64,000 bases of DNA from a phage, in NCBI GenBank assembly GCA_017864995.1, contig GCA_017864995.1_4097.1; one strand, 5' to 3'. This document shows, piece by piece, positions 3,757 to 3,838 of the stretch. The translations under genes were made by a program, and so were the position numbers. Position 1 is the first letter of the stretch; the number at the start of each line of letters is the position of its first letter. Under the pieces are notes generated by a model. It did not search any database. It saw nothing but the letters and a program-made list of their open reading frames with translations, and was not told the DNA's origin.

Positions 3757-3838
3757 CGGGCGTATCTCAACGGTCTTCTAAACCGTCGTTAATCGAGTAA
3801 CTGGAGTATGCAGGTTCGAGTCCTGTCGCCTGGGCCAA
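3757..3838 (+). ncRNA. tRNA-like element (aberrant: no canonical D-arm); possible unusual tRNA, tRNA pseudogene or small stable RNA
   Basis: acceptor CCGGGCG/CGCCTGG with one G-U, canonical T-arm GCAGG-TTCGAGT-CCTGT and 3' GCCA, but the 5' half does not fold into a standard D-arm; contains the same ACGGT...ACCGT stem as the preceding tRNA-Ser with loop CTTCTAA. Confidence 0.35.

Follow-up and report, generated by a model that had tools for sequence, protein, structure and literature searches.

Positions 3756-3837 of a 64,000-nucleotide (nt) phage sequence (contig GCA_017864995.1_4097.1; hereafter the window, to whose positions all unlabeled coordinates refer) very probably encode a functional elongator tRNA-Arg(UCU) that decodes AGA and has a rewired core, a reading drawn from comparative sequence analysis. 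The window is AT-rich (35% GC) and of the Asteriusvirus jumbo coliphage type: around the element, its sequence matches that of Escherichia phage Ecwhy_1 at 100% identity and those of 23 further Asteriusvirus records (121Q/PBECO4 group) at 97-100%. The acceptor/T minihelix, T loop, CCA end, and anticodon stem-loop of this element are canonical. As judged from covariation, it lacks a D hairpin, and a short D-stem-like helix encloses the whole anticodon arm. The predicted layout, from 5' to 3', is acceptor strand, UAU, a helix strand of 3-4 nt, anticodon arm, 7-nt bulge, second helix strand, the connector UAAnUGGAGUAU, T arm, and acceptor strand, an arrangement that would form a three-way junction with an anticodon/D stack of approximately 9 bp.

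Homologs were collected by blastn of a 91-nt element query against 50,697 phage records, which yielded matches in 684 records (coverage of at least 80% in 244), and by pattern scans of IMG/VR and the JGI metagenomes. About half of the distinct sequences returned by the pattern GTATCTCA-N5-CTTCTAA were chance or coding-sequence matches, and pattern matches were filtered by requiring both a T arm and acceptor pairing. At least 137 distinct family members remained after filtering; all family counts given here derive from the matches listed by these searches and are lower bounds.

The structure was established by covariation, using an alignment of 50 sequences (A2), a helix count on 132 parsed distinct sequences, and entropy and mutual-information measures on 127 sequences. 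In A2, 99.1% of acceptor-stem cells are paired, and all seven pairs show double-sided changes; the corresponding values are 94.8% and all five pairs for the anticodon stem, and 99.2% and three pairs for the T stem, whose loop conserves TTCGA. Double-sided changes were found at 15 of the 17 pairs in these three stems, and at 19 of 21 over the whole structure. Taken as a whole, 94.8% of the structure is paired, compared with 34-46% when the 3' partners are slid, and the observed values were reached by none of 500 shuffles.

The helix that encloses the anticodon arm joins columns 11-13 (window positions 3766-3768, CUC) to columns 40-42 (3795-3797, GAG). It was found through divergent members, in which it reads CGC/GCG (Streptomyces phage Stanimal) or CUU/AAG (coliphage FH3). 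All three Watson-Crick pairs are intact, in 14 combinations, in 132 of the 132 sequences parsed among the matches listed; in A2 the helix is paired throughout (100%) and never broken, its changes being double-sided in 29 cases and single-sided in none. Mutual information for the pair 12-41 reaches 1.50 bits, comparable to that of acceptor-stem pairs. A fourth layer, formed by columns 14 and 39 (A3769 and C3794), covaries among A.C, C.A, A-U, C-G, and U.G. We rejected a local variable-region hairpin, YCG/YGG with a GUAA GNRA-like loop (columns 38-40/47-49): none of its pairs shows a double-sided change, as many as 16 of 50 sequences break it, and Stanimal and FH3 are among the members that cannot form it. 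A candidate pseudoknot would join GUU (columns 33-35) to AGU (columns 50-52); pairing is possible at 96.7%, and the bases are essentially invariant, changing only from G-U to A-U.

The unpaired core is strongly constrained as well. U8, A9, and T10 are invariant in A2, and over the 127 sequences entropy is 0 at U8 and A9 and 0.3 bits at U10. Both the bulge, CGUUAAY, and the connector, UAAnUGGAGUAU, are near-invariant across phages of different bacterial phyla, with bulge columns C32, T34, A36, and A37 invariant in A2 and connector columns 43-45 and 47-54 invariant in the 127 sequences. Subclasses differ in the connector and in bulge length (approximately 2 to 9 nt), but all keep the long-range helix and GGA. 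In an initial set of 56 members, 26 have G as the discriminator, 25 A, 4 T, and 1 C, and 37 encode CCA. One viral contig, L222, carries two rewired tRNA-Arg genes (3788-3865 and 4087-4164) that differ both in anticodon (UCG vs. UCU) and in D-like helix (CAG/CUG vs. CGC/GCG). Another, L030, contains a further structural variant (13347-13425; linker UAUGCCG, connector ending AGCUAAUUGGAUAGAACAU, UCU anticodon) about 270 nt from a class-A CCU member; there, ARAGORN forces a 98-nt tRNA-Arg.

With one exception, the anticodons of the family are those of arginine. Of the 132 sequences parsed among the matches listed, 117 have UCU, seven CCU, five ACG, two UCG, and one ACU, so that 131 have an arginine anticodon, as do 49 of the 49 members fetched with anticodon-blind patterns. 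U33, C35, and A37 are invariant in the anticodon loop (A2). Because the anticodon varies only among synonymous arginine anticodons, the gene behaves as a decoder with a fixed arginine identity. A20 and C35 have a role in the recognition of E. coli tRNA-Arg by arginyl-tRNA synthetase (ArgRS), C35 being the major determinant. Of 37 canonical phage tRNA-Arg genes, 33 have an A after the D-loop GG, compared with 74 of the 774 remaining tRNAs at the same loci, and the invariant UGGA of the rewired family keeps this GGA hallmark of tRNA-Arg D loops. UAAnUGGA resembles D-loop positions 14-20 (including G18, G19, and A20) and may be their spatial equivalent, and GUAU, which leads into the T stem, may play the part of a short variable loop.

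The rewired gene substitutes for a canonical tRNA-Arg(UCU). In the sister phage vB_EcoM_G17, a canonical tRNA-Arg(UCU) of 77 nt (gene G17_00186) lies in the corresponding slot, 4 nt past tRNA-Ser(UGA). Across Asteriusvirus genomes the same slot holds the canonical gene in 10, the rewired gene in 24, and both in none. Elsewhere, the rewired gene supplies a missing arginine isoacceptor in L002, L012, L030, and L071: L002 (Felixounavirus) combines canonical Arg(ACG) with rewired UCU, L071 combines canonical UCG and ACG with rewired UCU, and L030 combines canonical ACG and CCG with rewired CCU and the UCU variant. The rV5-like phages have no other tRNA-Arg in their tRNA cluster. In the window, where AGA makes up 28% of the arginine codons of the open reading frames (ORFs), ARAGORN found no canonical tRNA-Arg.

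Carriers of the family include Asteriusvirus jumbo phages, Felixounavirus (~87 kb), rV5-like/Justusliebigvirus-type phages (~146 kb), ~145-kb Klebsiella phages, a T5-sized Klebsiella phage, ~131-kb Streptomyces phages, Campylobacter phages, and environmental viral contigs. Among bacteria and archaea, scanned at one genome per species (185,579 species), there were six matches, of which four were true members. All four lie on phage-like contigs of metagenome-assembled genomes, variously with phage-type tRNA clusters, HNH/endonuclease genes, or strong PHROG matches; the family is therefore essentially phage-only. One of these contigs, L230, encodes a PurZ-like enzyme at 3345-4556 (-) (phrog_1211, 2-aminooxy adenylosuccinate synthetase, E=6e-107), a hint that the genome of this phage contains 2-aminoadenine (Z). 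Between unrelated phage genera, the element is 88-90% identical, and ORFs for endonuclease VII or HNH homing endonucleases lie immediately 3' of some members (L002 2595-2942, in Felixounavirus VpaE1_ev78, and L233 5183-5728). Taken together, these two features suggest horizontal spread, and homing endonucleases may have carried the gene along from one phage genus to another; no endonuclease gene adjoins the element in the window.

Most GenBank records leave the element unannotated. The remainder label it "tRNA", "tRNA-OTHER", or "tRNA-Undet" or have an HNH coding sequence running across it, and in phage 121Q it is annotated as tRNA-Leu(taa) (gene 124; L356 603-684), a label that the family evidence contradicts. 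Hundreds of deposited phage genomes (121Q, PBECO4, Felixounavirus, rV5-like) thus omit or mislabel the gene, or draw coding sequences across it, and phage tRNA repertoires and codon-supply analyses consequently under-count tRNA-Arg(UCU). We found no description of the family, or of a tRNA with this core topology, in the full-text literature searched, subscription literature lying outside that search. In a catalog of structured RNAs from viruses (PMC10690425), the motif DNAVirus_2961 partly overlaps tRNA-Arg predictions and may correspond to this family.

A first-pass annotation, made from the window alone, had described a tRNA-like element at 3757-3838, five nt after tRNA-Ser(UGA). Its 82-nt length was right, but the gene starts and ends one base earlier, and the spacer from the tRNA-Ser CCA is 4 nt (3752-3755). 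The 7-bp acceptor stem followed by GCCA (CCGGGCG/CGCCTGG, then G3834 and the encoded CCA), the T arm, and the hairpin with loop CTTCTAA are present as described, and the element has CAACGGTCTT and AAACCGTCG in common with the neighboring tRNA-Ser. The same annotation reported that the 5' half could not be folded into a standard D-arm plus anticodon arm. A standard D-arm is indeed missing; the 5' linker, however, is not unpaired, as it forms the covarying helix of 3-4 bp with bases 3' of the anticodon arm. Rfam and ARAGORN searches, both proposed as checks, agree with this picture. RF00005 matches 3756-3834 at 32.6 bits (gathering threshold 29; E=4.8e-5), confirming a tRNA without the standard D-arm cloverleaf: its alignment deletes the D-arm, leaving 4 nt in place of 15 D-arm model positions, and inserts 20 nt as a variable region. 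ARAGORN did not call the element in default, -ps, -i (introns), or -mtmam mode. Its relaxed and organellar calls were artefacts, namely a forced tRNA-Asp(atc) whose D stem has two pairs (-ps80) and a truncated 56-nt "D-loop" fold that uses only part of the element (-mt). We also set aside an Rfam match to sX4 (23.7 bits vs. a gathering threshold of 70), in which mainly tRNA-Ser sequence is aligned. Folded as a single sequence, the element has an unremarkable energy (z = -0.64), and its minimum free energy structure places a small local hairpin within the variable region; as this z-score is uninformative, the case above chance rests on the homologs. Among the identities that had been offered for the element, a divergent D-armless tRNA reading UCU as arginine is the one favored by the invariance of U33, C35, and A37, the arginine anticodons in 131 of 132 members, and the canonical tRNA-Arg(UCU) in the corresponding slot of sister phages.

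Among known RNAs, the element resembles a tRNA-Arg but departs from the cloverleaf in one defining feature, the D hairpin. Like canonical tRNA-Arg(UCU) (G17_00186, E. coli argU), it has the anticodon loop CUUCUAA with C35 and A37 and a G/A73-CCA end, its UGGA matches in sequence the G18-G19-A20 motif typical of tRNA-Arg, and it occupies the same slot in sister phages; its T arm resembles those of T5-like tRNA-Arg genes (~92% over 36 nt). It differs from the canonical form in that the D-stem-like helix closes over the anticodon arm and not over a D loop, the D-loop-like residues follow that helix into the T stem, a 7-nt bulge is present, and the length is 82 rather than 77 nt. Metazoan mitochondrial tRNA-Ser(AGY/AGN), which lacks a D-arm, shares with it the three-way junction and the short 5' connector in place of a D hairpin. 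An extended anticodon helical domain has been proposed for the mitochondrial tRNA, which reads AGN codons, and both features are predicted for the element. The mitochondrial tRNA, however, serves mitochondrial translation only; it is a serine tRNA whose variable region is short and whose T loop is degenerate, whereas the element is phage-borne in hosts with bacterial translation, has a canonical T arm and 23 nt between anticodon and T arms, and belongs to a family whose anticodons include ACG, UCG, and CCU, all arginine in code 11. The resemblance is one of topology only, and the element is not a member of that class. Class II tRNAs (Ser, Leu, Tyr) and allo-tRNAs (PMC5389517) similarly have 20-odd extra nt between anticodon and T arms; in the element, this region forms no hairpin of its own and pairs back to nt 11-14, the acceptor/T lengths are 7/5 and not 8/4 or 9/3, and the D-arm that those tRNAs keep is absent.

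Together with previous knowledge of tRNA function, these features suggest how the gene might work. The sigma-70-type promoter-like site at 3622-3651 matches the consensus hexamers at 10 of 12 positions, has a TG extension, and lies approximately 10 nt 5' of tRNA-Ser; no terminator-like site was found between it and the downstream ORFs. This arrangement suggests that the element is co-transcribed with tRNA-Ser, and the site probably drives a dimeric tRNA-Ser/tRNA-Arg precursor, which would then be cut by RNase P and 3' processing. In the mature RNA, nt 11-14 (CUCA) would run straight into the anticodon stem and pair with CGAG after the bulge, and the resulting long-range helix would stack on the anticodon stem, standing in for the D stem. 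UAAnUGGA would stand in for the D loop, its GG contacting the T loop to build the elbow. Host ArgRS could charge this RNA through C35 and the A20-like A, and EF-Tu and the ribosome would then use the charged form, supplying AGA decoding to an AT-rich jumbo coliphage.

Several observations weigh against a functional elongator tRNA-Arg. We know of no D-hairpin-less elongator tRNA that works with bacterial EF-Tu and ribosomes in vivo. Nearest-neighbor energetics disfavor the 3-bp long-range helix, at a cost of +1.1 kcal/mol, and RNAalifold omits it; the helix was recovered only by explicit pair counting and mutual information. Given the unfavorable energy, the helix is presumably stabilized by tertiary contacts. 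In L110, rewired and canonical tRNA-Arg(UCU) genes occur in tandem, indicating that the two forms are not strictly interchangeable and not always redundant. The single member with a non-arginine anticodon, L300 (ACU; loop CUACUAA), may reflect a sequencing error or may be a real variant that reads AGU, AGC, and, if A34 is deaminated, AGA; it starts at about nt 853 on the minus strand of a 1,054-bp metagenome contig and is one substitution away from UCU relatives. Finally, the anticodon loop of the element is of the host type. Phages are known to escape anticodon nucleases through mutations in this loop, and a host-type loop is a poor fit to such a strategy.

Why the core was rewired invites a more speculative answer. 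Conceivably, and with distinctly less assurance than we attach to the decoding function, the architecture is an adaptive counter-measure, which keeps the determinants for ArgRS, EF-Tu, and the ribosome (C35, the A20-like A, and the acceptor/T minihelix) while dropping the D-arm/elbow geometry seen by tRNA-targeting nucleases, by toxins, or by a phage-induced system that degrades host tRNA. Were this true, arginine codons would still be decoded when canonical tRNA-Arg is destroyed, and the family would be the first natural class of D-hairpin-less elongators in standard bacterial translation, spread horizontally and possibly with homing endonucleases.

A different role in phage defense would be that of a non-translating tRNA-Arg mimic, acting either (i) to draw off, as a decoy or sponge, a host nuclease or modifying toxin directed at tRNA-Arg, or (ii) to regulate ArgRS, and thereby protecting host tRNA-Arg or titrating a defense protein. 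Phage tRNAs are known to counter tRNA-targeting defenses, as cited in PMC12916289, and a mimic would agree with the phage restriction of the family, the strong conservation of an unpaired core that a protein could recognize, the host-like anticodon loop, and the canonical tRNA-Arg(UCU) that L110 keeps alongside. We nevertheless consider it improbable: switching among four synonymous arginine anticodons, which complement the canonical arginine set of each phage, is the pattern of a decoder and not of a decoy for one nuclease; the canonical tRNA-Arg(UCU) is replaced, not accompanied, in 24 of 34 Asteriusvirus genomes; and the full 12-bp acceptor/T minihelix, N73, and usually CCA are retained. 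Still less probable is a small stable non-coding RNA like those of the T4 tRNA region, which the first-pass annotation had raised, or a cis-acting site, for example the target of a homing endonuclease or a site of recombination. The element does lie in a tRNA cluster, as the T4 RNAs do, and HNH or endonuclease VII genes directly follow members in Felixounavirus and L233. However, blastn of the element matched no T4-like phage: Tequatrovirus records, and T4-like phages generally, match the tRNA-Ser part only. The element has tRNA functional ends and an arginine anticodon, and selection on RNA structure (compensatory pairs, a tRNA-type T loop, the anticodon loop, and CCA) would be unexpected for a DNA target; in the window, no endonuclease gene adjoins the element.

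Two further interpretations can practically be dismissed. That the element is a degenerating duplicate or pseudogene of a neighboring tRNA, for example tRNA-Ser(UGA), was another early proposal, prompted by the shared CAACGGTCTT and AAACCGTCG and compatible with the absence of an ARAGORN call and the weak fold z-score. Decay is hardly credible for a sequence with at least 137 distinct homologs in unrelated phage groups, compensatory changes in every helix, and an invariant unpaired core; moreover, the ACGGU/ACCGU stem recurs in members on the unrelated contigs L012, L025, L102, and L161, and so need not have been copied from the tRNA-Ser neighbor. There is equally little prospect that the element is a tRNA-Leu(UAA), with the bulge UUAA as its anticodon and the 3770-3786 hairpin as its D-arm, as the 121Q annotation implies and as conservation of UAA in CGUUAAU might suggest. 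This UAA has no flanking 5-bp stem, position 33 or 37 would be non-canonical, and the UAA-flanking bases pair with nt 11-14 and covary with them. The hairpin loop, for its part, varies only among arginine anticodons with U33, C35, and A37 fixed, and relaxed ARAGORN gives no leucine tRNA but only the forced tRNA-Asp(atc).

To our knowledge, the D-hairpin cloverleaf is treated as universal outside organelles. The rewired tRNA-Arg family is an apparently conserved and abundant D-hairpin-less class in phages of Enterobacteria, Actinobacteria, and Campylobacter, hosts that use standard bacterial translation. If its members are charged and decode, bacterial ArgRS, RNase P, EF-Tu, and the ribosome tolerate a wider range of tRNA structures than has been assumed, the family offers a natural scaffold for tRNA engineering, and whether this architecture evades tRNA-targeting immunity becomes a testable question. 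The carriers include easily grown coliphages, which makes such experiments straightforward. Features of the element and of its immediate surroundings are listed in Table 1.

Table 1. Coordinates of the predicted rewired tRNA-Arg(UCU) gene, its parts, and neighboring sites in the window
Feature	Position	Strand	Remarks
Sigma-70-type promoter-like site (TTGGGA, 18-nt spacer, TATAAT, upstream TG)	3622-3651	+	Consensus match only
tRNA-Ser(UGA), canonical class II, encoded CCA (3749-3751)	3662-3751	+	ARAGORN; Rfam tRNA 61.7 bits
Predicted rewired tRNA-Arg(UCU) gene	3756-3837	+	82 nt including encoded CCA
Acceptor 5' strand, CCGGGCG	3756-3762	+	Pairs with 3827-3833, one G-U
U8-A9-U10 connector	3763-3765	+	Near-invariant in family
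Long-range D-stem-like helix, 5' strand (CUC + A)	3766-3769	+	Pairs with 3794-3797
Anticodon arm, ACGGU-CUUCUAA-ACCGU	3770-3786	+	Anticodon UCU at 3777-3779
7-nt bulge CGUUAAU, between anticodon stem and 3' strand of D-like helix	3787-3793	+	Conserved; putative role
D-stem-like helix, 3' strand (C + GAG)	3794-3797	+	Pairs with 3766-3769
Connector UAAcUGGAGUAU, near T stem; UAAnUGGA then GUAU	3798-3809	+	Invariant in family
T arm, GCAGG-UUCGAGU-CCUGU	3810-3826	+	5-bp stem, UUCRANY-type loop
Acceptor 3' strand CGCCUGG (3827-3833), discriminator G73 (3834), encoded CCA (3835-3837)	3827-3837	+	

Other tRNA genes of the window include a tRNA-Ser(GCU) at 5881-5970, whose G17 counterpart is a tRNA-Ser(act) both by annotation and by ARAGORN; a 79-nt tRNA-Met at 6125-6203 with its anticodon at position 37; and two neighboring copies of tRNA-Thr(UGU), at 7581-7654 and 7661-7734. 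Directly 3' of the rewired tRNA gene are three tandem paralogous ORFs of 54 amino acids (beginning MTHEEWMNDINFRYSGIG; 3859-4023, 4020-4184, and 4181-4345, all on the plus strand), which are joined by ATGA stop/start overlaps and whose equivalents in G17 and 121Q are hypothetical proteins.

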